Positions 1,419 through 33,609 of a DNA stretch of 33,609 bases are shown piece by piece. A program made the translations under genes and the position numbers. The DNA lies in IMG/VR virus record IMGVR_UViG_3300040801_002597, positions 1 through 33,609 of that record. One strand, 5' to 3'. Numbering within the stretch: position 1 is the first letter of the stretch; every line of letters begins with the position of its first letter. The notes under the pieces are model-generated. The model did no database searches. It was not told the DNA's origin and was given only the letters and a program-made list of their open reading frames with translations. This stretch comes from a virus.

Positions 1419-1553
1419 ATGCTTAACAATGATGTTATTAAAATATTTTTACAATCTATTCAATCCCTACCTAAAGAATTGCGCGATAATTACAAACGTT
1501 CATTGATGAATATTATAATTAAATCTAAAAAAGGAATTTTTGATCATGACTAA
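1419..1553 (+). CDS. Hypothetical small protein (44 aa; below ORF-track cutoff)
   Basis: A strong RBS AAAGGAGG (1405-1412) lies 6 nt before the ATG. The sequence is MLNNDVIKIFLQSIQSLPKELRDNYKRSLMNIIIKSKKGIFDHD. The stop overlaps the next gene's start. Confidence 0.55.
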   Translation: MLNNDVIKIFLQSIQSLPKELRDNYKRSLMNIIIKSKKGIFDHD

Positions 1554-2349
1554 ACAATATATAAACCCATGTAACTACGAAATAGCTGCCATCATTCCGA
1601 ACTGGTTAATGCAAATACCAATGAGCCACCTTAGCGCGAATTCAAAAATTTTATATAGTCGCTTATGTGCATGGGCATATAAAAATGGCACTTGTTATCG
1701 TTCGGTGCCAAAACTTGCAAAAGAAATTGGTTGCAGCCCACGAAGTTGCGATAGATATATCAAAGAACTAAAAGACTTCGGTCTTATCGAAACATACCTA
1801 AACCAAGAAGGCGGTCAAAACAATTATAGATTTTTAAAGCACGAGCTAATGGATACCGAGATTATCCCAGAATTGACGCGTGACCAAAAAAAATCACCCC
1901 ACGACAAATCTGACGCCCCCCCCACGTCAGACCTGCCGCCCCCCCACGACAAATCTGACGTGCATAATATAAAAGAATATAAAAATATAAATATCATGAT
2001 CACTGAATCTGGCCAAAAAATGGCCAGTGAGGATGAACTGTTTTTTTTGTGTTGTTTTTTGGAATCTTATAATCTATATTGCCCTACGCACGACATTAAG
2101 AGCCTAACGTCAAAGCATATTAAAGCGATACGAATATTTCTTGATTGGCTTAAATCAAAAGGTATTGAATATAAGCCGGAAGTATTAAAGGAGTTAATGG
2201 AAAGTTATGAAGATAAAGCACATTATTGGTTAAGAGCTGGCGACTATAATAGCGAAAGAAGTAACCCTAAACTTTGCGCACTATTGAAGCCAGCAAATAT
2301 CAAAAAAATGTTGAATGACAATTTTGATAGTTTTTACAAACAGGAGTAA
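1546..2349 (+). CDS. Replication initiator, lambda-O-like architecture (N-terminal winged-helix HTH, repeat linker, C-terminal domain)
   Basis: LSANSKILYSRLCAWAYKNGTCYRSVPKLAKEIGCSPRSCDRYIKELKDFGLIE matches the phage/plasmid replication wHTH pattern. The duplicated PHDKSD linker is encoded by iterons. It sits immediately upstream of the DnaB-like helicase. ATG 1546 is preferred over TTG 1540. Confidence 0.7.
   Translation: MTKQYINPCNYEIAAIIPNWLMQIPMSHLSANSKILYSRLCAWAYKNGTCYRSVPKLAKEIGCSPRSCDRYIKELKDFGLIETYLNQEGGQNNYRFLKHELMDTEIIPELTRDQKKSPHDKSDAPPTSDLPPPHDKSDVHNIKEYKNINIMITESGQKMASEDELFFLCCFLESYNLYCPTHDIKSLTSKHIKAIRIFLDWLKSKGIEYKPEVLKELMESYEDKAHYWLRAGDYNSERSNPKLCALLKPANIKKMLNDNFDSFYKQE
1897..2003 (+). 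promoter_or_regulatory. Putative origin of replication (ori1) inside the initiator gene
   Basis: CCCCACGACAAATCTGACG occurs at 1897-1915 and 1942-1960. An inverted half-site CGTCAGA lies at 1925-1931. An AT-rich tract follows at 1961-2003 (tgcataatataaaagaatataaaaatataaatatcatgatcac). Confidence 0.55.
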
Positions 2350-2355
2350 TTATAT

Positions 2356-3663
2356 ATGAAAAATGTACAACCGCAACCTTTAAACATTTATCAATCTTGT
2401 TTAAGTTTTTTAAGTACTTGTTTAAGTCCATCTTGTTTTAACGATCACAACGTTATTTTAGCCAAACAACAAGTAAAACCTTACATGCTGCCACACAGGG
2501 AAATGCAGATTTATTATAACGAAATTTTGAAAAATAATGTTGTAGGGTATGAAAATATGTGGGACTGGTCAGAAAACAATGATTGCTTGGCATTACACGC
2601 CAGCTTGTCTCAAGTTTATCACAATAAATACGAAATATTAAAAGATGTGGAGGAAATAGTTAAGAATTATTTTACTTATAAATCGGCCTGTGAGCTTCAT
2701 AGCGCGCTTTTAAGATTTAATACATTAAAAGGTGTTGTTGATAGAGAAAAATTGATTGTAGATGCTTTAAATTCAGTTTTAGACTATAAGCAAAACAACT
2801 TTTTGAGAATAACGTCCCAAGAAGAGCGTTATGATAATTATATTTCTAATCTTGAAAATGGTACTGACACCGTTGTTTTAAATGATACAGTTTTCAATTC
2901 TATTGCTGATAATTCTATTAGAAAGCAAGGATTAATAACAGTTGCAGCCAGATCGGGAGGCGGTAAAAGTTATTTTTCAACTTACCTGGCCCTAGAATTT
3001 GCAAAAGTTCTCGATAAAAAAAATATTTTAGTTCTTGATTATGAAATGTATGAAGACGTCCAGACACAAAGAGAATTACAGTTACAAGGCTATACTGACG
3101 ACCTAGAAGGTGCAATAAAAGCACGCAAAGACTTAGAACAAAAACAAGGCCGTATATTGTATATAGAGGGCGCTGCTACAGACAAAAAAATTGATACAGT
3201 TTGTCAAATGGCTAAAATTTACAATTGCCAATACCCTTTAGGCGTCATTGTAGTTGATTACATTGCGTGCTTACATACTGATAACAATTCTCAAAAGTAT
3301 TTATCAATTACTGAGCAAGCCGATAAACTATCAAATCTTGCTCAAGAATTAAATTGTATCATTATTGCGCCGACACAAATTAATCGTGATTATAAAAATC
3401 GCGATAAAAACAATATACAAGAAATGTTACCAAAAACAACAGACGCCTCTTATAGTAGCGGTTTAGAGCAAAAATCTAATTTATGGCTTGGTATTGGAAC
3501 GCCTGAAAACGATCCGACAGCGTTATATGTTGTTTGCCGTAAAAATAGATACGGCGCTAAAGATAACATAGGCATGTATCGTTTTAGAAATGGCCAACTT
3601 AATCCGGCGCCATACCAGCCACAACCAAGCGAATTTAAATCACAATTGGAGAAATTAAAATGA
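2356..3663 (+). CDS. DnaB-family replicative DNA helicase
   Basis: Walker A AARSGGGKS, Walker B VIVVDYIA, APTQINRD, and an arginine-finger-like CRKNRYG. Length is 435 aa and an AGGAG RBS is present. Confidence 0.8.
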   Translation: MKNVQPQPLNIYQSCLSFLSTCLSPSCFNDHNVILAKQQVKPYMLPHREMQIYYNEILKNNVVGYENMWDWSENNDCLALHASLSQVYHNKYEILKDVEEIVKNYFTYKSACELHSALLRFNTLKGVVDREKLIVDALNSVLDYKQNNFLRITSQEERYDNYISNLENGTDTVVLNDTVFNSIADNSIRKQGLITVAARSGGGKSYFSTYLALEFAKVLDKKNILVLDYEMYEDVQTQRELQLQGYTDDLEGAIKARKDLEQKQGRILYIEGAATDKKIDTVCQMAKIYNCQYPLGVIVVDYIACLHTDNNSQKYLSITEQADKLSNLAQELNCIIIAPTQINRDYKNRDKNNIQEMLPKTTDASYSSGLEQKSNLWLGIGTPENDPTALYVVCRKNRYGAKDNIGMYRFRNGQLNPAPYQPQPSEFKSQLEKLK

Positions 3664-3705: not shown

Positions 3706-3933
3706 ATGGAAGATATTAAGTTTTTAAATTGGCTTTATAGACAAGCTGTTTCAAAACCCGCAACACCAGAACAAGATTTATGCAGTGATTTAAAAAGATA
3801 TTTTGATTATCATCGGAGATTGCCATTTCATCAAAACACTAGTAAAAATTATAAGGAAAATTTTGAATTTCCAGACTTTGATCACATACAAGAACCGCTT
3901 AATAATTTACGCAAGCAATTCTTAAACAAATAA
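3706..3933 (+). CDS. Hypothetical protein (75 aa)
   Basis: ORF track entry with AAGGTGA RBS. It is the last gene of the replication operon. Confidence 0.6.
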   Translation: MEDIKFLNWLYRQAVSKPATPEQDLCSDLKRYFDYHRRLPFHQNTSKNYKENFEFPDFDHIQEPLNNLRKQFLNK

Positions 3934-3946
3934 AAGTTATAAACAG

Positions 3947-3973
3947 AGTTATCCCCAAGAACTGGGGATAACT
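3947..3973. terminator. Bidirectional hairpin terminator between convergent operons
   Basis: The 11-bp stem AGTTATCCCCA pairs with TGGGGATAACT across a 5-nt loop. TTT follows on the plus strand. Confidence 0.65.
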
Positions 3974-3980
3974 TTTAAGA

Positions 3981-4328
3981 TTAGAGGCTTTCTAAATATT
4001 CTTTGACTTGGTTAAAATCAATTTCAGACGCTTTATAATGCGACACGCCCTTAATAGTCTTTTTAGGGATATTTAAACCCGTTAACCAGCGCCCAAAACC
4101 CCGACGGTCGATTTTTTTATCAGCACAGCCTAAGTTATTTAATATTTGCTGAATGCTTATAAAATCCTCTTCATTTTTAATTTCTTCAAACTCAGATTGC
4201 ATCACTTTTAAAAGCTTAAGACTTAAATTGTACAAGCGCTCATCATAAGCGCTTAAAGGCTCCACTTGTTTTTTATCCATACAGTAACGGACATTTGTTT
4301 GTAAATAATTTGCAAATTCATTAAACAT
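3981..4328 (-). CDS. Hypothetical protein (115 aa), last gene of the left early operon
   Basis: ORF track entry with AGGAAA RBS. No family recognised. Confidence 0.65.
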   Translation of the reverse strand: MFNEFANYLQTNVRYCMDKKQVEPLSAYDERLYNLSLKLLKVMQSEFEEIKNEEDFISIQQILNNLGCADKKIDRRGFGRWLTGLNIPKKTIKGVSHYKASEIDFNQVKEYLESL

Positions 4329-13061: not shown

Positions 13062-14860
13062 TGCCTATTAAAGAATTGCCAATTATCGTACATTATGGCA
13101 AGCAACGCTTTAATCAATTTAACTCGATGGATTCGGCTAATTTTAGTTTGGTTCAGGATAGCATGGGCAAAAAAAAAGTTGCTATGTATCCGACGATGGG
13201 CCGTCGGAATGTTGAAGTTGACAACAAAAAGTTATTAAATTTTGAAGCAGAGCCAAGGGCTATTTTTCGGTCAATTAATTTTGGTTATGCCGTTGTTCGG
13301 GATAAGATTTATAAATTTGGTGATAGTTTTACGCCGATTGACATATCCAATAGTGACTTTACTGGTTTTAACAAAACGGTTTGGTTTACTTATTTGCCAA
13401 CGCCTACGAAAGTTTATGCCATTTTTACTGATGGCAACAATATGTATATTTATGATGAAACGTCAGCGGGATTAATGGCAACGGTAACGGATTCTAGGGC
13501 GCCGTCTAATCCGACGTTTGTAGCGGCTTTTGGCAATCGTATTGTTTGCAGCAATGCCGATTCAACACAGTTTAATGTGACACGCTTAAACTTAGATAAT
13601 GCAGCGGCGGCGACTGCGGCGACTAATTGTTTTTCTTTTGGTACGCCCGCGGCGGCTATATTTGCTCAGGAGTCTGGAAAAATTCGACAAATGGCGGTGT
13701 TGCATAATCAGCTATATATATTTACTGATTTTGATGTTGGTATATGGTCTAACAGTCCGACGTCTTTAAGTTCTAGTAATACGGTGATTCCGTTTCCGTT
13801 TCGCAAAAATACAAGTTATAACTTTGATTTTGGTATTGCCGATCCAAACAGTTTAGATGTTGATTTTGGCATGATGGTATGGTTGGGCCAAAGTCGTAAT
13901 GGTTTAGTTGAATTTGTTATGAGCACAGGCGGGCGCCCTGAGTCTATACAGGATAAATCGATTGACGTGTTGCTTGAAAATAAGACTGCCGAGGGAAATC
14001 CGAGTCCATTTTTAACTGAACAGGTTAATGGATTTTTGTATCAATATGAAAACAGTGTTTTTTATCGTGCGAGTGCTGGTCGTTATAGTGGCACGGGTTA
14101 CGTTGATTGTGATACTGAAGCGGCAAGTATTGAGCATAATTTTGATACTAAGACGTGGACGCGTTGTATTGAGTTAAATGGCGAGCGGTGCCGGGTTGAA
14201 AAGCATATTTATTTAAACAATAAGCATTTAGTGACTGTGCAAAATGACACGAGTATTTATGAGTTTGATGGCCGGACGTATGTTAATTATAGGCGTAATA
14301 GTGATAATTCTGTTCCAATAACGTCGAATGATTTTTATGTTATCGATCCGATGCGTTATATAGCTATTACACCTTTGATTTTTGAGCCAGATTATAGTGA
14401 ATTTATAACAGACTGGGTTCAAATTGATTTTGTCTGGGGTCGAAGCGGTGTTGTTGAGGCCGATTTATTGTATGCCAATACAACATTTATTATTACAGAA
14501 GATGCTGATGGTGATGGCGAGCCTATATATGTTATTGCTGAGGATTCTGATAGTGATGGTAACCCGATTTATTTAATTACTGAGGATAGTGATACGCCGT
14601 CGGCTGGTGGTGACATACATTACCGCAATTATTTTAGGCCCCATGTTGAGCTTTATTATAGTGATGATGGTGGCGAGACATATTTACAGGCTGATGTCAG
14701 GCATTTTAGTGATATTGGTTTTTATAGGTGGCGTATGCGGTGGTATGAGTTAGGTAGTTCTCGCAATAGAGTTTATAAGCTTGTTTGTGTAAGTGTTGGC
14801 CCGATGGTTGTATTGGGTGGTATTATGTCGACCCGTCCGGCGTCCGGGGGTGCTAGGTGA
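13061..14860 (+). CDS. Tail hub / packaged-DNA stabilisation protein (P22 gp10-like)
   Basis: The N-terminus MPIKELPIIVHYGKQRF resembles P22 gp10 MPIQQLPMMKGMGKDF (from memory). Size and synteny fit. ATG 13061 is preferred over 13028. Confidence 0.55.
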   Translation: MPIKELPIIVHYGKQRFNQFNSMDSANFSLVQDSMGKKKVAMYPTMGRRNVEVDNKKLLNFEAEPRAIFRSINFGYAVVRDKIYKFGDSFTPIDISNSDFTGFNKTVWFTYLPTPTKVYAIFTDGNNMYIYDETSAGLMATVTDSRAPSNPTFVAAFGNRIVCSNADSTQFNVTRLNLDNAAAATAATNCFSFGTPAAAIFAQESGKIRQMAVLHNQLYIFTDFDVGIWSNSPTSLSSSNTVIPFPFRKNTSYNFDFGIADPNSLDVDFGMMVWLGQSRNGLVEFVMSTGGRPESIQDKSIDVLLENKTAEGNPSPFLTEQVNGFLYQYENSVFYRASAGRYSGTGYVDCDTEAASIEHNFDTKTWTRCIELNGERCRVEKHIYLNNKHLVTVQNDTSIYEFDGRTYVNYRRNSDNSVPITSNDFYVIDPMRYIAITPLIFEPDYSEFITDWVQIDFVWGRSGVVEADLLYANTTFIITEDADGDGEPIYVIAEDSDSDGNPIYLITEDSDTPSAGGDIHYRNYFRPHVELYYSDDGGETYLQADVRHFSDIGFYRWRMRWYELGSSRNRVYKLVCVSVGPMVVLGGIMSTRPASGGAR

Positions 14861-15203: not shown

Positions 15204-15791
15204 ATGAGTTGGTTGAGCGAATTATTACATGGCAATAAAGGTGCTTATAATCAGGCTATTGGCCAGTTAGAGGGTAGTCGCGGACGTGCTCAGGGTTATA
15301 TGCAACCATTTCTGGATAACTTATCTAATCCTAAAAAATTTATGGGTGAGTTAACTGAGGGTTATTCTGAGTCACCTTATGCTCAGCAATTGACCGATGT
15401 TGCCACAGAAGCAGGCAAGAGTGCTGCAAGTTCTATGGGGTTATCTGGTAGTAGTAATGCGGTTCAAAGCATTGAGCAGCAAGCCGGTTCGATTGCACAG
15501 CAGGACCGTCAACAGTATTTACAGAATTTAATGAACATGTATAACACGGGTGCGGGTGTCGCTGGTAATATGGCGGGCATTGAGGGGCAGTATAGTGGTC
15601 CATTGGCTGAGCTTTACGGTGGTAAAGCGTCTTCTGGTCCGAACATGTTAGCAACTTTGCTTGGTGGTGGCGCTGGTGCACTTGGCAGTTATTTTGGCGG
15701 TCAGGGCGGTCAGGGTGGTCAAGGCGGTCAAGGTGGTCAAGGCGGTGGTTTCATGTCAGCGATTACTAAAGTATTGCCGTTTCTTTTATAA
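15204..15791 (+). CDS. Internal virion / ejection-type protein with C-terminal (GGQ)5 repeat
   Basis: It occupies a position equivalent to P22 gp7/gp14. It is Gly/Ala/Ser/Gln-rich and ends ...GGQGGQGGQGGQGGQGGGFMSAITKVLPFLL. Confidence 0.4.
   Translation: MSWLSELLHGNKGAYNQAIGQLEGSRGRAQGYMQPFLDNLSNPKKFMGELTEGYSESPYAQQLTDVATEAGKSAASSMGLSGSSNAVQSIEQQAGSIAQQDRQQYLQNLMNMYNTGAGVAGNMAGIEGQYSGPLAELYGGKASSGPNMLATLLGGGAGALGSYFGGQGGQGGQGGQGGQGGGFMSAITKVLPFLL
15696..15749 (+). repeat. Tandem 9-bp repeat GGYGGTCAR x6
   Basis: Read directly. It encodes the GGQ repeats. Confidence 0.9.
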
Positions 15792-24958: not shown

Positions 24959-24994
24959 TCAAAATATTCAAATAAGTATAATCGCAAAAGAAAA

Positions 24995-25027
24995 GGCGCA
25001 CCATGGGGGTACGCCTATCAATTTTTT
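24995..25027. terminator. Hairpin terminator at the end of the late operon (T/A tracts on both sides)
   Basis: GGCGCACC pairs with GGTACGCC with 1 mismatch. TTTTTT lies 6 nt downstream on the plus strand, and TTTTCTTTT is immediately adjacent on the minus strand. Confidence 0.5.
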
Positions 25028-25053
25028 ATAAACATTAACAGGTGCATCATACC

Positions 25054-25338
25054 ATGATAAATTCAGTTTGCAAGTATCAATTTCTTTTTTCCAAAATTGA
25101 CGGCTCAAATCTTTTAGAATCAAGCTTTTTAAGTTGTATATTTGATTCATTATTAAAAAATGGTCAAGTCGCATGCCAAAATCAAATTCCAAGTGAAAAG
25201 CTAAAACATTCCGTTAGAACTATCCAGCGCACAAAACAATCTCTTATAAAGAAAAAATGGATAGAAGTTCAAGGCCGTTCTTTTAAACAAAAAATTATTC
25301 CCGGCCAAAAATTACAAAATTTAATTAATTATATTTAA
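25054..25338 (+). CDS. Small winged-helix HTH protein (94 aa from ATG 25054; GTG 25042 possible)
   Basis: IPSEKLKHSVRTIQRTKQSLIKKKWIEVQGRS matches the wHTH recognition pattern seen in replication and regulatory proteins. Confidence 0.5.
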   Translation: MINSVCKYQFLFSKIDGSNLLESSFLSCIFDSLLKNGQVACQNQIPSEKLKHSVRTIQRTKQSLIKKKWIEVQGRSFKQKIIPGQKLQNLINYI

Positions 25339-25348
25339 GGAGAAAAAT

Positions 25349-26101
25349 ATGTCATCAATTTTTTACAAACATTACACTTGCTTGTATCGCCAATCTGATT
25401 TAGATATTCATGAAATATCAATATTAAATATTGTTATATCTCACACAAATAAAAAAAACATATCTAATCAATCCAATATTGGCCTCTATAATATTCTTAA
25501 AAACATCATGAGTTTTTCTAAAATAAATAAAGCTATGAGCGCTTTACAAAAAAAAGGTTATTTAATCGCATTTGGTAAAACGTATAACAGAAAATTACAG
25601 CTATCTGAAAAGCTACTAAAATTACTTGATCGCACCAAAAATGTCATTGATGAAAAATTGAACGATGTTTCCTGTGAGGAAAGGGATGTTTCCTGTGAGG
25701 AAAGGGATGTGTCACCACAGGACAATATAATAGATAATACTAATAGATCTTTAATAGATAATAACCCTGATGTTGTTGTTTCTGATTCTTTTGTTGAAAA
25801 GAAAGTACTTAGTGCCAGACGTGAGAATCTTGAAAATAACGAGCCCAACGTGCCAAACGATAACTTCTTAGAGGTTATTAAGGCACACATTAAAAGTCGT
25901 CAGGAAAAGGCTGACGTTAGCTTTCATCACGCATTAAACGGCGTTATCAAGATAATTAAGACCACAGGCTTTAAATTGCCAAAAGGTTTTAAAACAAAGC
26001 GCCAGAGAGCTTTAGAGAATGATGAAATTCAGCGACGATTAAAATTACAGGAAGAGTATAGCCGAAACAAAGCACTTAAAGAGTTGGGTCTTCTGGCATG
26101 A
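25349..26101 (+). CDS. Second O-like initiator-architecture protein (wHTH, repeat linker, C-terminal domain)
   Basis: A strong AAGGAG RBS is present. The wHTH-like segment is FSKINKAMSALQKKGYLIAFGKTYNRKLQL. The duplicated DVSCEER linker is encoded by 21-bp repeats. The 3' end overlaps the convergent helicase gene by 26 nt. Confidence 0.55.
   Translation: MSSIFYKHYTCLYRQSDLDIHEISILNIVISHTNKKNISNQSNIGLYNILKNIMSFSKINKAMSALQKKGYLIAFGKTYNRKLQLSEKLLKLLDRTKNVIDEKLNDVSCEERDVSCEERDVSPQDNIIDNTNRSLIDNNPDVVVSDSFVEKKVLSARRENLENNEPNVPNDNFLEVIKAHIKSRQEKADVSFHHALNGVIKIIKTTGFKLPKGFKTKRQRALENDEIQRRLKLQEEYSRNKALKELGLLA
25664..25775 (+). promoter_or_regulatory. Putative second origin-like element (ori2): 21-bp iterons plus AT-rich tract
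   Basis: GATGTTTCCTGTGAGGAAAGG occurs at 25664-25684 and 25685-25705, with a partial third copy at 25706-25721 containing the inverted CACAGG. An AT-rich tract with AATAGATAATA x2 follows. Confidence 0.45.
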
Positions 26102-27755
26102 TATAATCAACAACTTGCAAACCCCATTTGGAGTTTTTACAGACAATTTTTTTAGGTCTGTCTATTCCATGTTGTTTTAAATAAGCAATAACAGCGTTTG
26201 TATTGTGAAGATGCTTGTATAAATATGATGCTTTAGGCACTAACTTTTTAAATAAATTAAAATAAGTGTATTTATAAGATGCGTCTGTGCCGGTAAAATA
26301 ATTTTGGGTAAAAGATATGCCGTCTTCTAGTTGAAATTCAAGCTCATAAATGGGGTAGCCATTATGGTTTTGCGGTGAAATGCGGAAATTAGCTTTGAGA
26401 ACGTTAAAAACTTCATGGTCTTTGGAGCATGATTTTGATAATCCAGTATTGGGATCGATTAACTGATAATCACAGTTTTTACAGTTTTTAGCGGTAATAT
26501 CATTCTCATACCAGCAATCTGGACAATTTTTCCAGTCAAACATATAACTGCAACGCTTATTGTCTGACAAACCAATACAACGGCGAGCGTGCATTGTATT
26601 GTTTGTGTCGCATTCTGGACACGGAATACAAAAATCTGGATCGTTTTTAGCTTTTTCCAAGCGCATTTCATTAACAATTAAATCGTCAATGTCACCATGG
26701 CGCTCTAAGTTACCAGCATAATCTAAAACAAGACAGTTAAGCTTTTCATCATGTAACCTTAAGCCACGACCCAAAGCTTGCAAATATAAAGTAATAGACT
26801 CCGTAGGACGCACAAAAACAACCGTATCAAATAGCGGCACATCGACGCCAGTCGTTAGACAATTTACACTGATTAAATAACAAATTTGGCCTTTTCGAGC
26901 TAATTCTAAAGATTCTTTGCGTTCTTTTGGACATGTCTTACCTGTAATAATGCGTGTTCTTTCTTCTGGTAACTGGCTGGCGCATTCATAACAATGCTTA
27001 ATGCTTGTTGCAAAAATAAAAGCCCCGCGCCTTTGCGAGACTAGACCGTGAACTTCACGCATAATTTCATGAGTAAGCGTTAAATTGTCTTCAACAACAC
27101 GGTTTAAATCTTTTTTATTAAACTGGCCATTGGTTATTTTTACATTTGAAAAATCAATATCAGACTTGTCATGATGACCATAAACCGGCATTACTAAGTA
27201 ATTATTTTTAACAAGCCAGCTTGTCGATATGTTGCAAACTTCACTTTTAAAAAAAGCTTTGTCACCAATTATAGATTCTTTGCCACGAAAAGGGGTGCCC
27301 GTCAGACCAACAACATAACAGCCATAATGATTAAATATGCGCATATACATACTGGTTGGCTTTTTAACGTCAATATTATGACATTCATCTACCACGATTA
27401 AATCAAACTCTTTTCGAGAGATAGTTCTTTCTTTCTGGATAGCTTTAACAATGCTGCCCGGGCTTGCAAATATGACTGGATAGTCATACTCTTTCTTTTT
27501 TAACGTGGCGCAATAGATACCGCAACGACCGCCTTGGCCTTCATAAGTTGCAGCATTTTGCGATATTAAGTCGCTATTCATCGTTAAACATAAAACATTT
27601 TTATTTCTGTTTTGTAAGTATAATAACAGTTCTGCAATAATAAGAGATTTTCCAGCGCCGACGCTGGCATTAACAATACAAGGATCTGTGCTATTTTCAA
27701 CTTGATAAATTAGTTTATCAAGGGCGTCTTTTTGATAAGGTCTAAGTGTCTTCAT
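26076..27755 (-). CDS. SF2 (DEAD/ResIII-type) helicase with C-terminal Cys-rich zinc-ribbon region
   Basis: Motifs LRPYQ, NASVGAGKS, VVDECH, GLTGTP and QALGRGLR. The C-terminus has CIPCPEC...C, CPDC and CKNC clusters. ATG 27755 (MKTLRPYQ) is preferred over 27779. Confidence 0.8.
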   Translation of the reverse strand: MKTLRPYQKDALDKLIYQVENSTDPCIVNASVGAGKSLIIAELLLYLQNRNKNVLCLTMNSDLISQNAATYEGQGGRCGIYCATLKKKEYDYPVIFASPGSIVKAIQKERTISRKEFDLIVVDECHNIDVKKPTSMYMRIFNHYGCYVVGLTGTPFRGKESIIGDKAFFKSEVCNISTSWLVKNNYLVMPVYGHHDKSDIDFSNVKITNGQFNKKDLNRVVEDNLTLTHEIMREVHGLVSQRRGAFIFATSIKHCYECASQLPEERTRIITGKTCPKERKESLELARKGQICYLISVNCLTTGVDVPLFDTVVFVRPTESITLYLQALGRGLRLHDEKLNCLVLDYAGNLERHGDIDDLIVNEMRLEKAKNDPDFCIPCPECDTNNTMHARRCIGLSDNKRCSYMFDWKNCPDCWYENDITAKNCKNCDYQLIDPNTGLSKSCSKDHEVFNVLKANFRISPQNHNGYPIYELEFQLEDGISFTQNYFTGTDASYKYTYFNLFKKLVPKASYLYKHLHNTNAVIAYLKQHGIDRPKKIVCKNSKWGLQVVDYIMPEDPTL

Positions 27756-28389
27756 AATGACAAAACTCATGATAAGCACACATTTTACATTGATACCATG
27801 TTGGTTTATTTGATATTTTTGGCGGCTTTATTTTAGCATTTATAATTTGCTCTGCTTTAAACAAAAGCTGTTCGTAAAGTTCTGGATTAAACGCTATGGC
27901 TTCAACTTGAATTTCTGCAGTATCTTTATCGACAGCAATAAATACACATGATTTTAAACCAGACATACCCATATAGCATTGAACTTGGCAATAATAAGAC
28001 CAACGCCATTTTTTTAAACCTTCGCGACAAAAAGCTAAAAATTCACTGTGTTTGCAGGATTTTATTTCTAAAACGTGTTCTATATCATCGATTACAATAA
28101 TGCCGTCAATATGACCGCCAAAATTTTGAACGGGTGATTTTAATTTAGGGATATCATTAGATAATAATTCAGCTTCACGCAATAAATCTTTTACAAGTGT
28201 TTCTATTCTATGGCCAAGTCTGAATATTATTTTTTGTTTTGCTGTAAAACGTTTTTTTTCTGGATTGTGATAATCATTATATATAGAGCGCGGACAATGA
28301 TTACCAATAGATGACGCACCTAGATAATTTCTAAGTGCGTCTTGTTGGTTGTTTAAGGTTTCATGTATTTTTTTTATTACAAAATCCAT
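27742..28389 (-). CDS. Cas4-like PD-(D/E)xK nuclease with 4-Cys (Fe-S type) signature
   Basis: The nuclease core is GHIDGIIV...HVLEIKSCK. The Cys pattern is C32 ... C-x2-C-x5-C (CKMCAYHEFC), as in Cas4/AddB-type nucleases. Confidence 0.7.
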   Translation of the reverse strand: MDFVIKKIHETLNNQQDALRNYLGASSIGNHCPRSIYNDYHNPEKKRFTAKQKIIFRLGHRIETLVKDLLREAELLSNDIPKLKSPVQNFGGHIDGIIVIDDIEHVLEIKSCKHSEFLAFCREGLKKWRWSYYCQVQCYMGMSGLKSCVFIAVDKDTAEIQVEAIAFNPELYEQLLFKAEQIINAKIKPPKISNKPTWYQCKMCAYHEFCHYEDT

Positions 28390-30064: not shown

Positions 30065-30093
30065 TTGATATATCAATTTTTTACATATATAAT
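30065..30093 (+). promoter_or_regulatory. Rightward early promoter with a palindromic operator candidate
   Basis: TTGATA (30065-30070), 17-nt spacer, TATAAT (30088-30093). The perfect 12-bp palindrome TTGATATATCAA (30065-30076) covers the -35. Confidence 0.6.
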
Positions 30094-30113: not shown

Positions 30114-30287
30114 ATGAAACTAGATGAACTTAAAAAAAAGTACAAAACTCATTATATGATTGCCAAAAAATTTGGTTTTGCGGTCAACTCGGTAAATTAC
30201 TGGGAGAAAGTCGGTTACATACCGAAGGCTGCGCAATACAGAATTTTTGTCCAGTCAAATGGGGAGTTTAAAATAACAGAGGTTTAA
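30114..30287 (+). CDS. Cro/YdaS-like HTH regulator (57 aa)
   Basis: GGAGG lies 8 nt upstream. IAKKFGFAVNSVNYWEKVGYIPKAAQYRI matches the Cro/YdaS HTH pattern. ATG 30114 is preferred over the ORF-track start at 30093. Confidence 0.65.
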   Translation: MKLDELKKKYKTHYMIAKKFGFAVNSVNYWEKVGYIPKAAQYRIFVQSNGEFKITEV

Positions 30288-33422: not shown

Positions 33423-33609
33423 ATTTTAGTGAAGCATTAGAACAGATTAAAAAAGGTAAATTACTTAAACGCTCTGGCTGGAACGGCAAAGACCAGTTTG
33501 TTTTTTTGGTTAATGGTTCAGAGTTTAAAGTAAACCGTGCGCCTTTGTTGTGGATCTTTGAGGACGGTACAGACATAAAATATCGCCCTCATATTGATAT
33601 GAAGTATCA
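33419..33609 (+). CDS. 5' part of the DUF2829 (Tad2-family) gene, truncated by the window end (full gene 88 aa across the junction, ending at position 193)
   Basis: The sequence begins MNFSEALEQIKKGKLLKRSGWNGKDQFVFLVNG... The N-terminal F.EAL..IK.GK...R.GWNGK and C-terminal W.AS..DLMAEDW signatures match DUF2829 as I remember it. Confidence 0.7.
   Translation, partial: MNFSEALEQIKKGKLLKRSGWNGKDQFVFLVNGSEFKVNRAPLLWIFEDGTDIKYRPHIDMKY
33493..33609. repeat. Terminal overlap, copy B (identical to 1..117)
   Basis: Direct reading; see copy A. Confidence 0.95.

Follow-up and report, generated by a model that had tools for sequence, protein, structure and literature searches.

Does the locus at 25054..26101, where a small winged-helix paralog is followed by an initiator gene with intragenic repeats and an AT tract, constitute a second origin of replication, and what would it serve in a phage that already has one? 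The window, by which we mean the whole analysed stretch of 33,609 nt, holds a complete P22-like phage genome of 33.5 kb with an exact terminal overlap of 117 bp. Pfam, PHROG and NCBIfam scans of the ORFs of this complete genome found no integrase, confirming the absence noted in a first-pass annotation; nor could a toxin-antitoxin pair, an immunity repressor or ParA/ParB be recognised in the genome. Rfam and tRNA scans were empty, and neither the region nor the packaging genes matched any of 50,697 phage records by blastn. Because the genome is complete and holds no recognisable integrase, ParA or repressor, we regard a second initiator-origin unit beside the canonical ori1 as well supported, infer that its putative origin, ori2, is active, and treat a role in plasmid maintenance as speculative. 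All six sequence statements of the first-pass annotation hold.

The second initiator gene (25349..26101, plus strand) is an intact ORF with a strong Shine-Dalgarno sequence, AAGGAG, 5 nt 5' of its ATG; homology, an AlphaFold model, hhalign and Foldseek place the 250-aa product among O-type initiators. The AlphaFold model, built on a six-sequence alignment (the single-sequence prediction, at pLDDT 43, was unusable), contains a winged helix at residues ~20-85, a disordered linker at 98-145 and an all-helical domain at 146-245, backing the three-part layout originally read from the translation; the repeat-coded residues 106-126 fall inside the disordered stretch. Foldseek matched this model to MarR-type winged helices in the PDB and to full-length phage 'HTH domain' and 'replication initiator' proteins in BFVD, with E-values from 8e-6. 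Searched by itself, the protein gave zero Pfam hits, its own winged helix lying under every threshold and no Phage_rep_O, HTH_36, Rep_3 or other Rep family being matched; NCBIfam returned nothing usable, and the PHROG scan a sole match to phrog_270 (E = 0.02). A sequence-profile search of the PDB returned only non-significant matches to RepA_N (E ~0.15-0.19) and MarR-type proteins. Its C-terminal domain belongs to an uncharacterised family without a Pfam model. The protein is the shortest and most divergent family member and has the smallest repeat array, and it keeps the invariant C-domain residues H180, A195, K201, F208, P211 and Q234.

An exhaustive HMMER search recovered five remote homologs (E = 2.7e-8 to 6.8e-4) in which both the layout and the C-terminal domain are conserved. 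Homolog P0006 passes the HTH_36 cut-off at 32 bits, P0004 and P0006 touch Phage_rep_O, and matches of homologs to PHROG families for replication initiation and of O-like and DnaD-like type range from 1e-9 to 3e-21. When 5.8 billion proteins were searched by a word-indexed method, the 250-aa protein found itself only, with no close relative, and the family profile found P0005, P0007 and P0008 only; back-translated family scans of IMG/VR and GTDB genomes gave no confirmed hit, and tblastn with P0001 and P0006 had zero matches in plasmids (PLSDB, 72,556 records) or isolate phages. The approximately ten lineages of the clade that were found are all from metagenomes and all uncharacterised; on homology, the clade is one of rare, metagenome-only initiators of the lambda-O/HTH_36 type, and it is strongly supported that 25349..26101 encodes a remote but real member of it.

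Family members fill the canonical early-right initiator slot in five relatives (L007, L009, L004, L033 and L059). Together with the remote homologs of the same layout, the PHROG replication-initiator matches and the repeats in the linker DNA, these canonical slots strongly support the earlier proposal of a second lambda-O-like initiator. The window's copy lies outside the early-right operon, with the terminator of the late operon on one side and the end of the leftward operon on the other, and has no same-strand gene downstream, the next gene being a convergent SF2 helicase. A protein of ~80-90 aa (phrog_852) follows the initiator in six lineages, and a six-frame search of the whole window did not find it; L001, L008 and L143 also show no partner gene beside the initiator, in L001 within a contig that stops ~100 nt past it.

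The putative ori2 iterons (25664..25726) were detected by TRF and a repeat search, at a position that also holds repeats in relatives. They consist of a perfect tandem of two GATGTTTCCTGTGAGGAAAGG units (25664-25684 and 25685-25705; TRF: 2.2 copies, 100% matches) and a degenerate third unit, GATGTGTCACCACAGGACAAT (25706-25726), which matches at 12 of 21 positions and has its core inverted, CACAGG in place of CCTGTG. Each unit contains an internal dyad, TTTCC-N5-GGAAA. With up to three mismatches allowed, GATGTTTCCTGTGAGGAAAGG has two sites in the window and no match across 100 dinucleotide-preserving shuffles, and no further iteron copies occur elsewhere in the genome. At the end of the array lies a candidate DNA-unwinding element (25724..25765, 86% A+T) with two copies of TAATAGATAATA, starting at 25728 and 25752; with up to one mismatch this element has three matches, a count reached by 1 of 100 shuffles. 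By nearest-neighbour energies, the least stable 40-mer duplex of the 33.6-kb window starts at 25724 and the second least stable at 1964, directly 3' of the ori1 repeats. DnaA boxes are at background in the genome, with none at ori2. TRF, the mismatch search and base composition thus reproduce both the 21-bp repeat, twice perfect and once partial with the inverted CACAGG, and the AT-rich tract with its doubled element, as they had first been described.

Looking for such repeats in relatives, a check that the first-pass annotation had named, revealed linker-DNA repeats in every family member examined for them, backing the view that the second initiator gene has intragenic iterons and an AT tract of its own. 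These are direct repeats specific to each lineage, mostly with a 21-25 bp period: 6-8 copies in L001, 4-5 copies at a 22-bp period in L004 and L009, two perfect 22-bp copies in L008, two copies in L007, 2.8 copies of 22 bp in L143, four copies at 24-33 bp spacing in L033, and three 24-bp copies in L059, the third of which has an inverted core like the window's. An A-rich repeat tract lies 3' of the array in L001 and L009. In P0004, where the period is 22 bp, one core, GCGCAGAAAAC, encodes the peptides AENV, RRKR and AQKT in three frames, from which it follows that constraint acts on the DNA and not on the peptide. As observations against reading the locus as a replicon, the window's two perfect units and one degenerate unit are fewer than most relatives have, and a perfect duplication of 21 bp, a length divisible by three, might reflect a recent slip.

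The first initiator gene (1546..2349, plus strand) has clear Pfam (HTH_36) and PHROG (replication initiation) matches and is followed by a DnaB-type helicase gene (2356..3663). TRF places the ori1 repeats, of CCCCACGACAAATCTGACG type and 22-bp period, at 1897-1960, with an AT tract from 1961. The two units are alike in the three-part layout of the initiator, in linker-DNA repeats with an AT tract, and in a homologous N-terminal winged helix; ori1 differs from ori2 in its repeats, C-domain and helicase type, in its canonical operon position and in its clear Pfam and PHROG matches. When the ori2-initiator family was compared with the ori1 initiator by hhalign, only the N-terminal winged helix aligned (probability 80%, E = 1.4e-5), and on this comparison the C-terminal domains are unrelated. 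The CCCCACGACAAATCTGACG-type iterons likewise have no sequence relation to the ori2 repeats, as had been stated. The ori1 initiator and DnaB-type genes are rare in the group, each having a single BLAST homolog in the first 90 loci. A survey of 185 loci, including partial contigs, for genomes with two initiators found only L022 with a second, shorter winged-helix protein, which is without repeats. A further observation against a replicon at the second locus is that the canonical initiator-helicase pair of this phage is already complete.

The small winged-helix gene noted ahead of the initiator exists as an ORF at 25054..25338 (plus strand), with AGGTG 9 nt 5' of its ATG. Its stand-alone 94-aa product matches the initiator-family profile over the initiator N-terminal domain (E = 5.4e-4), gives BLASTP E = 4e-6 against a 116-aa ORF located ahead of the homologous initiator of L004-L006, and has weak HTH_36 and PHROG O-like matches; other homologs were not found. 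It is a paralog of the initiator N-terminal domain and presumably serves the cassette as a regulator or as an accessory DNA-binding protein. We considered whether this ORF had arisen by a recent tandem duplication of 337 bp with a shared 21-mer at its borders, and rejected the idea: outside the 21-mer the DNA shows no similarity (z = 0.04), and the small ORF does not align with the initiator N-terminus in BLASTP.

Copy 1 of this 21-mer, ATCAATTTTTTATAAACATTA, lies 5' of the small ORF (25017..25037, plus strand); copy 2 occupies codons 2-9 of the initiator gene (25354..25374, plus strand) and is identical to copy 1 at 20 of 21 positions. Copy 3, with three mismatches (30072..30092, plus strand), falls in the spacer and -10 region of a promoter-like site for early rightward transcription, TTGATA-17-TATAAT; downstream of it is a short 57-aa ORF (30114..30287) that is unannotated and has no NCBIfam match. 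The core of copy 1 fits the IHF consensus WATCAANNNNTTR, and this copy is a possible operator or host-factor site. We found no convincing private promoter for the cassette, promoter-like matches being at background (13 found against 9.5 expected). This background level, the absent phrog_852 partner, the lack of enrichment of DnaA boxes, the short length of the 250-aa protein with its winged helix under every Pfam threshold, and the want of a close relative in which this particular cassette could be seen conserved are also observations that run against a replicon.

Upstream, a G+C-rich hairpin with T-runs on both sides (24994..25016) starts 36 nt past the VRR-NUC stop and folds at -11.7 kcal/mol (z = -3.1), which upholds the description of the locus as flanked by a hairpin terminator. 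A terminator scan assigns it to the minus strand, and a plus-strand T-run follows it too; it is probably a bidirectional terminator that would shield the cassette against transcripts of the late operon. Leftward (helicase-operon) transcripts would traverse the whole cassette before reaching it as their first terminator-like hairpin.

On the other side, the SF2 helicase gene (26076..27779, minus strand; ResIII/DEAD/Helicase_C and zinc-ribbon by Pfam) encodes a candidate partner helicase. As this minus-strand ORF ends at 26076, it overlaps the initiator gene convergently over 26 nt (26076..26101), the same overlap as previously reported. In L001, the closest homologous initiator lies 20 nt downstream of an orthologous SF2 helicase, 44% identical to that of the window, and the orientation of the window's initiator is the inverse of that arrangement. 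The junction between the VRR-NUC gene, at the end of the late operon, and the SF2 helicase gene is variable, holding ParA-type partition cassettes or methylases in relatives, and the cassette is probably an accessory insertion there. In L014, L015, L020, L021 and L092 the junction contains a ParA-like ATPase gene and a small gene of 66-78 aa, with the ParA identity given by Pfam for L014 and L092 and by a sequence motif only for L015, L020 and L021. L092 is a separate 36.5-kb contig in a gammaproteobacterial genome assembly, and L010, whose initiator is of the same family, encodes ParA as well. Within the partial genomes examined, the ParA-carrying relatives have no second initiator.

We consider it probable, with moderate confidence, that 25054..26101 is a self-contained O-type replicon cassette made up of a small winged-helix protein, an initiator and an intragenic cognate origin, ori2. 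The analysis shows the homology, the anatomy, the occurrence of linker-DNA repeats across the family, the ranking of duplex stability and the genomic surroundings; DNA binding, melting, helicase choice and firing at ori2 are steps that we infer. Dimers of the initiator's N-terminal winged helix would bind the dyad-symmetric 21-bp units (25664-25726), and since the 21-bp spacing amounts to two helical turns, the bound initiators would lie on one face of the DNA. The resulting nucleoprotein complex would melt the adjacent 86% A+T tract (25724-25765), and the helical C-domain would recruit a helicase, most likely the neighbouring SF2 enzyme or host DnaB, and not the phage DnaB-type helicase of ori1. 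Regulation of the cassette probably falls to the small winged-helix paralog and to the 21-mer found at the start of each of the two genes.

Such a unit could also be a maintenance replicon for a plasmid prophage, expressed from a promoter of its own when the early operons are off and sustaining an integrase-less episome, with ori1 and the DnaB-type helicase serving lytic growth in the manner of P1. The complete genome with its 117-bp terminal overlap, the missing integrase, the ParA-like ATPase at the same VRR-NUC/helicase junction in five relatives, the occurrence of L092 as a separate contig, the ParA of L010, and the insulation of the cassette by a terminator-like hairpin and its putative regulator all agree with plasmid-like carriage, which the first-pass annotation had raised. 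Set against this, partition genes, toxin-antitoxin pairs and immunity repressors could not be recognised in the window, tblastn found nothing of the family in PLSDB, and the other family members sit in early lytic-type operons. Moreover, the ParA-bearing relatives manage without a second initiator in the parts examined, so that partition needs no extra replicon in this phage group. We judge this explanation unlikely. A fuller version, in which a P22-like phage, probably of a Legionellales-like gammaproteobacterial host, has two independent O-type replicons with different helicases (DnaB-type for ori1, SF2 for ori2) and the portable ori2 cassette of regulator, initiator and origin, insertable in either orientation at the accessory junction that holds partition genes in relatives, serves as the plasmid-state replicon of this integrase-less phage, is likewise unlikely.

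The cassette might instead be a dispensable, decaying leftover of mosaic exchange, in which an old initiator and SF2 helicase, as in L001, were superseded by ori1 and the DnaB-type helicase. This would fit a family that is the usual canonical initiator in several relatives, the rarity of the window's ori1 initiator and DnaB-type genes, a 250-aa protein that is the most divergent of its family with the smallest array, the missing downstream partner and the orientation inverse to L001. However, the ORF is intact, its Shine-Dalgarno sequence is strong, the invariant residues of the C-domain are retained, the repeats are perfect, the AT tract is the stability extreme of the genome, and the lack of an adjoining partner gene is shared with L001 (within its short contig end), L008 and L143; we hold decay to be unlikely. 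Initiator-derived regulators or an exclusion device, with winged-helix proteins acting as repressors or with repeats and initiator blocking the replication of superinfecting relatives, are highly improbable. Stand-alone winged-helix paralogs of initiators at other sites in L004 (116 aa), L019 (195 aa) and L022 (188 aa), the 21-mer common to both gene starts and an early promoter, and the accessory-gene surroundings would suit such a role, and lactococcal phages are known for origin-derived 'Per' resistance. Yet the full initiator architecture is kept, including a C-domain and an AT tract that would be superfluous for a repressor, and since the iterons differ among all lineages seen, cross-interference would reach near-identical phages only. 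Homology makes the autoregulated repressor locus, offered earlier as the alternative, less likely.

The O-type replicon cassette that we favour would bring two distinct initiator-origin pairs into one small phage, each beside a different helicase type, which is uncommon. The analysis also defines a previously unannotated clade of phage initiators, with a C-domain that has no Pfam model and no member in the isolate-phage and plasmid collections searched. Putative origins of this clade can be read from sequence, and the 22-bp repeats in three frames provide a clean argument for constraint at the DNA level. The phage offers a compact system for studying the choice of helicase by an initiator, and for asking what a spare replicon might be good for, be it carriage, host range or withstanding defences that target replication. 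The junction is the mark of a phage group with partition genes in several members; this group would consist of candidate phage-plasmids of poorly studied hosts.

Among known systems, lambda O and P22 gene 18 are the nearest in design. Both encode an N-terminal winged helix, lambda ori lies inside gene O, and in this type the C-terminal domain is taken to recruit a helicase system whose genes, for lambda P and P22 gp12, lie immediately downstream. The window's cassette shares with lambda O and P22 gp18 the winged helix, the dyad-symmetric linker-DNA repeats followed by an A+T-rich tract, and the 21-22-bp spacing. It differs from them in a protein without significant Phage_rep_O or HTH_36 match and with an uncharacterised C-domain, and in having a convergent SF2 helicase gene instead of a downstream P-like or DnaB-like gene; it has two to three repeats against four in lambda and lies outside the early-right operon.

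Phage P1 carries separate plasmid (RepA/oriR) and lytic (RepL/oriL) replicons, with one origin inside an initiator gene, and is thus similar in having two initiator-origin pairs per genome, one of them intragenic, and in its partition genes, which here occur in relatives only. The proteins are unrelated, the P1 RepA iterons flank the gene, and P1, at three times the size, possesses parAB as well as immunity systems, neither of which was found in the window, where a division of labour is hypothetical. Bacillus phage SPP1 is likewise small and has two origins: oriR, and oriL within gene 38, which encodes the initiator G38P; there a single initiator serves both origins, whereas the window has two initiators and unrelated repeats.

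The extrachromosomal prophage replicons of mycobacteriophages (PMC7157519) are based on a RepA-like protein or on RNA, belong to other protein families and have demonstrated maintenance, which for the window's cassette is only hypothesised. Iteron plasmid initiators of the Rep_3 type (RepA, RepE, Pi; reviewed in PMC4980987) contain two domains of winged-helix fold, and their iterons lie outside the gene, usually accompanied by DnaA boxes; the window's unit differs in its all-helical C-domain, intragenic repeats, unenriched DnaA boxes and lack of plasmid homologs. With that type, the cassette has in common a winged helix, direct repeats of ~20 bp and an adjoining AT-rich unwinding element.

The cassette at 25054..26101 comprises two plus-strand ORFs, each with an upstream Shine-Dalgarno sequence: a small ORF of 94 aa (25054..25338) and an initiator ORF of 250 aa (25349..26101). 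Its left border is a G+C-rich hairpin (24994-25016; -11.7 kcal/mol, z = -3.1), and its right border is the 3' end of the minus-strand gene for a 567-aa SF2 helicase, which overlaps the 250-aa ORF by 26 nt. Within the initiator ORF, 25664-25705 consists of two perfect tandem copies of GATGTTTCCTGTGAGGAAAGG, followed by a third unit (25706-25726) that matches at 12 of 21 positions and has its core inverted; every unit contains the dyad TTTCC-N5-GGAAA. The ensuing tract (25724-25765) is 86% A+T and holds two copies of TAATAGATAATA; we call these repeats and this tract, as a putative origin, ori2. Nearest-neighbour energies give the 40-mer from 25724 the lowest duplex stability in the window, and the next lowest belongs to the 40-mer from 1964, immediately past the repeats in the first initiator gene. 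Shuffled windows gave no match to GATGTTTCCTGTGAGGAAAGG even with up to 3 mismatches. Since the repeats are absent from shuffles and the AT tract is the extreme of low stability, the ORFs, 21-bp repeats, AT tract, hairpin and overlap described in the first-pass annotation are confirmed and are not due to chance.

Alone, the 250-aa protein has no Pfam or NCBIfam match, hits just phrog_270 in PHROG (E = 0.02) and retrieved nothing beyond itself in a word-indexed protein search. Among 1.84 billion representative proteins, exhaustive HMMER searching revealed five homologs (E = 2.7e-8 to 6.8e-4), most aligning to its C-terminal 100 residues. These proteins of 281-326 aa share an N-terminal winged helix, a repetitive linker and a conserved C-terminal domain. 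Among family members, HTH_36 is matched above its cut-off by P0006, which, like P0004, also touches Phage_rep_O; P0006, P0002 and P0007 match replication-initiation, O-like and DnaD-like PHROG families (1e-9 to 3e-21). In a structure model from a six-sequence alignment (pLDDT 64), residues 20-85 have the topology of a winged helix, residues 98-145 are disordered and residues 146-245 form four helices, which supports the three-part layout initially proposed for this protein. Foldseek searches with the model returned MarR-type winged helices from the PDB and, from BFVD, full-length alignments with phage proteins annotated 'HTH domain' or 'replication initiator'. By hhalign, similarity between this family and the window's first initiator is confined to the winged helix, and the two initiators thus have a common DNA-binding fold with different C-terminal domains.

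When relatives were checked for repeats, as the first-pass annotation proposed, every family member examined for them had direct repeats in its linker DNA, each with its own sequence. Among the loci fetched from related phages and genomes, L001 has 6-8 copies of AACCCGGATCATATGATCC, L004 and L009 have 4-5 copies with a 22-bp period, L008 has 2 perfect 22-bp copies, L007 has 2 copies, L033 has 4 copies at 24-33 bp spacing and L143 has 2.8 copies of 22 bp. The 24-bp array of L059 has 3 copies, and its third copy, just like that of the window, has the core inverted; an A-rich repeat tract follows the array in L001 and L009. In P0004, one DNA core, GCGCAGAAAAC, recurs with a 22-bp period and is translated in three frames, giving AENV, RRKR and AQKT; translation through every frame is seen for the 22-bp iterons inside the initiator genes of L004 (3394-3481) and L009 (1609-1750). 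Such arrays cannot be due to selection for a repeated peptide, which is, at the level of sequence, a clean demonstration that the 22-bp iterons are constrained as DNA. A repeat core conserved as DNA across reading frames is a signature of lambda-type origins. The window's 21-bp period, being a multiple of three, cannot alone argue for such constraint; for its repeats, the predicted DNA constraint is carried by the family, not by the window itself.

In L007, L009 and L004-6 the family member takes the early-right position that is canonical for initiators of P22-like genomes, and it does so too in L033 and L059. In L007 and L009 the genes for the small terminase and the P22-type portal follow a few kb downstream of the initiator, and L007, L009 and L004-6 have no DnaB gene nearby and possess the AAA_24...SF2-helicase leftward operon. 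In six lineages an 80-90-aa protein (phrog_852) directly follows the initiator, often overlapping it (L004 3983-4255; L007 8846-9088; L009 2250-2495; L010 5141-5413; L033 2763-3008; L059 2514-2819); this candidate partner, perhaps a loader or an adaptor, is not encoded in the window. In L001, only 20 nt separate the gene for P0002, the closest homolog, from the co-oriented helicase gene upstream of it, whose product is 44% identical to the helicase of the window. Stand-alone 188-195-aa proteins in L019 (8559-9146) and L022 (20379-20945) have an initiator-type winged helix, run in the late-gene direction and have no intragenic repeats.

The initiator profile hits the 94-aa protein with its N-terminal domain (E = 5.4e-4), and the protein also matches a 116-aa ORF of L004-6 (E = 4e-6), which precedes and overlaps the homologous initiator and itself matches the profile (9e-18); a small winged-helix paralog plus initiator is thus a recurring pair. 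We found no other homologs of the 94-aa protein. Copies of a 21-mer, ATCAATTTTTTAYAAACATTA, are located ahead of the small ORF (25017-25037), in initiator codons 2-9 (25354-25374) and, with 3 mismatches, at 30072-30092, where the copy covers spacer and -10 sequence of the promoter-like site of the early rightward operon; the expected count is 0.03. The 21-mer core fits the IHF consensus WATCAANNNNTTR, and a further match to this consensus lies at 26105, 4 nt past the initiator stop; the window holds 8 such matches, with roughly 3-4 expected by our own estimate from base composition. We rejected the 21-mer as the edge of a recent duplication, and regard it as a putative site, common to these loci, for regulation or for a host factor.

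An exact 117-bp terminal overlap (1-117 = 33493-33609) indicates a closed assembly, circular or circularly permuted, of a 33,492-bp genome; a 127-aa ORF crosses this junction. The window encodes a P22-type portal and coat, a small terminase, an endolysin and a late operon ending with a VRR-NUC nuclease, and a leftward operon of AAA_24, DUF669, Cas4/YqaJ-like nuclease and SF2 helicase; it has no nucleotide match among isolate phages. The rightward early operon starts behind a promoter-like TTGATA-17-TATAAT and a 57-aa ORF, and contains the first initiator (1546..2349; HTH_36 at 1e-10, phrog_270 at 2e-16), with the ori1 repeats inside its gene (1897-1960, 22-bp period) and a DnaB-type helicase gene directly after it (2356..3663). 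Upstream of this operon (1284-1400), a hairpin GCATTGA...TCAATGC precedes four perfect tandem copies of AATTTTAACG (1314-1353; period 10 bp, one helical turn) and a second hairpin, CCCAATGCC...GGCATTGGG, with a fifth AATTTTAAC in its loop; this region may serve ori1 as a regulatory element or an accessory part of the origin. Elsewhere, a 42-bp tandem repeat (14490-14594, 2.5 copies) lies within a 610-aa structural gene, GGCGGTCAA x5.7 (15696-15746) encodes a Gly-Gly-Gln repeat ending a 195-aa gene, and the inverted pair TTATCCCCA / TGGGGATAA (3949-3971), between convergent genes 3706..3933 (+) and 3981..4328 (-), is probably a terminator stem.

A helicase-anchored scan, which gave 80 IMG/VR loci and 15 genome loci, showed that in related phages (L011-L040 and L092) the VRR-NUC and helicase genes are convergent, abutting or overlapping in about ten loci and separated in the remainder by 0.2-5.4 kb of variable genes. 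This junction is an accessory-gene hot spot in the phage group; in the window (24959-26075) it is filled by the 1.1-kb cassette, which by this placement is an accessory insertion and not conserved backbone. Junction inserts elsewhere include a ParA-type ATPase with a small 66-78-aa gene (L014, L015, L020, L021, L092) and a C-5 methylase (L012, L015), with Pfam confirming the methylase of L015 and the ParA of both L014 and L092; metallophosphatase and many genes without assigned function also occur. The nearest genome-borne helicase-module relatives (L091-L093) are a MAG labelled Bacteroidota, Gammaproteobacteria bacterium BBSC-SA01 (a stand-alone 36.5-kb contig) and an uncultured Legionella MAG, and together with the 37% G+C they make a Legionellales-like host plausible.

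The best reading, and in our judgement a probable one, is that the cassette is a functional second initiator-origin unit. The initiator would bind the linker repeats, open the AT tract and recruit a helicase distinct from the DnaB-type enzyme linked to ori1. No terminator separates the cassette from the helicase gene, so early transcripts running leftward should cross ori2 antisense, up to the hairpin at 25016-24994, and may have an activating or modulating effect on the origin, like that of transcription at ori-lambda.

Plasmid-like carriage, also raised by the first-pass annotation, is favoured by two findings: the inserts with ParA at the same junction of relatives suggest a phage-plasmid lifestyle for some members of the group, and no integrase was found in any scan of the window. 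The same scans, however, revealed no ParA or recognisable repressor, leaving the window with no partition or immunity gene, and the initiator family is absent from plasmid records, so that we consider a plasmid-state replicon unlikely. That the cassette is a vestige of module exchange seems similarly improbable, and an initiator-derived regulator or exclusion device very improbable indeed.

The second initiator-origin unit, as judged from its sequence, would work like lambda O and ori-lambda, having the winged helix, intragenic repeats and AT tract of that type, but it has no downstream helicase/loader gene and lies outside the canonical operon position. Its initiator is not an iteron-plasmid Rep. 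Among known phages, P1 has two replicons and SPP1 has two origins. Pairs of initiator and origin that are both O-type but different, with distinct helicase types, in one small P22-like genome were found neither among the fetched relatives nor in the literature searched, and it is this arrangement that the window presents, each predicted pair beside a different helicase type.
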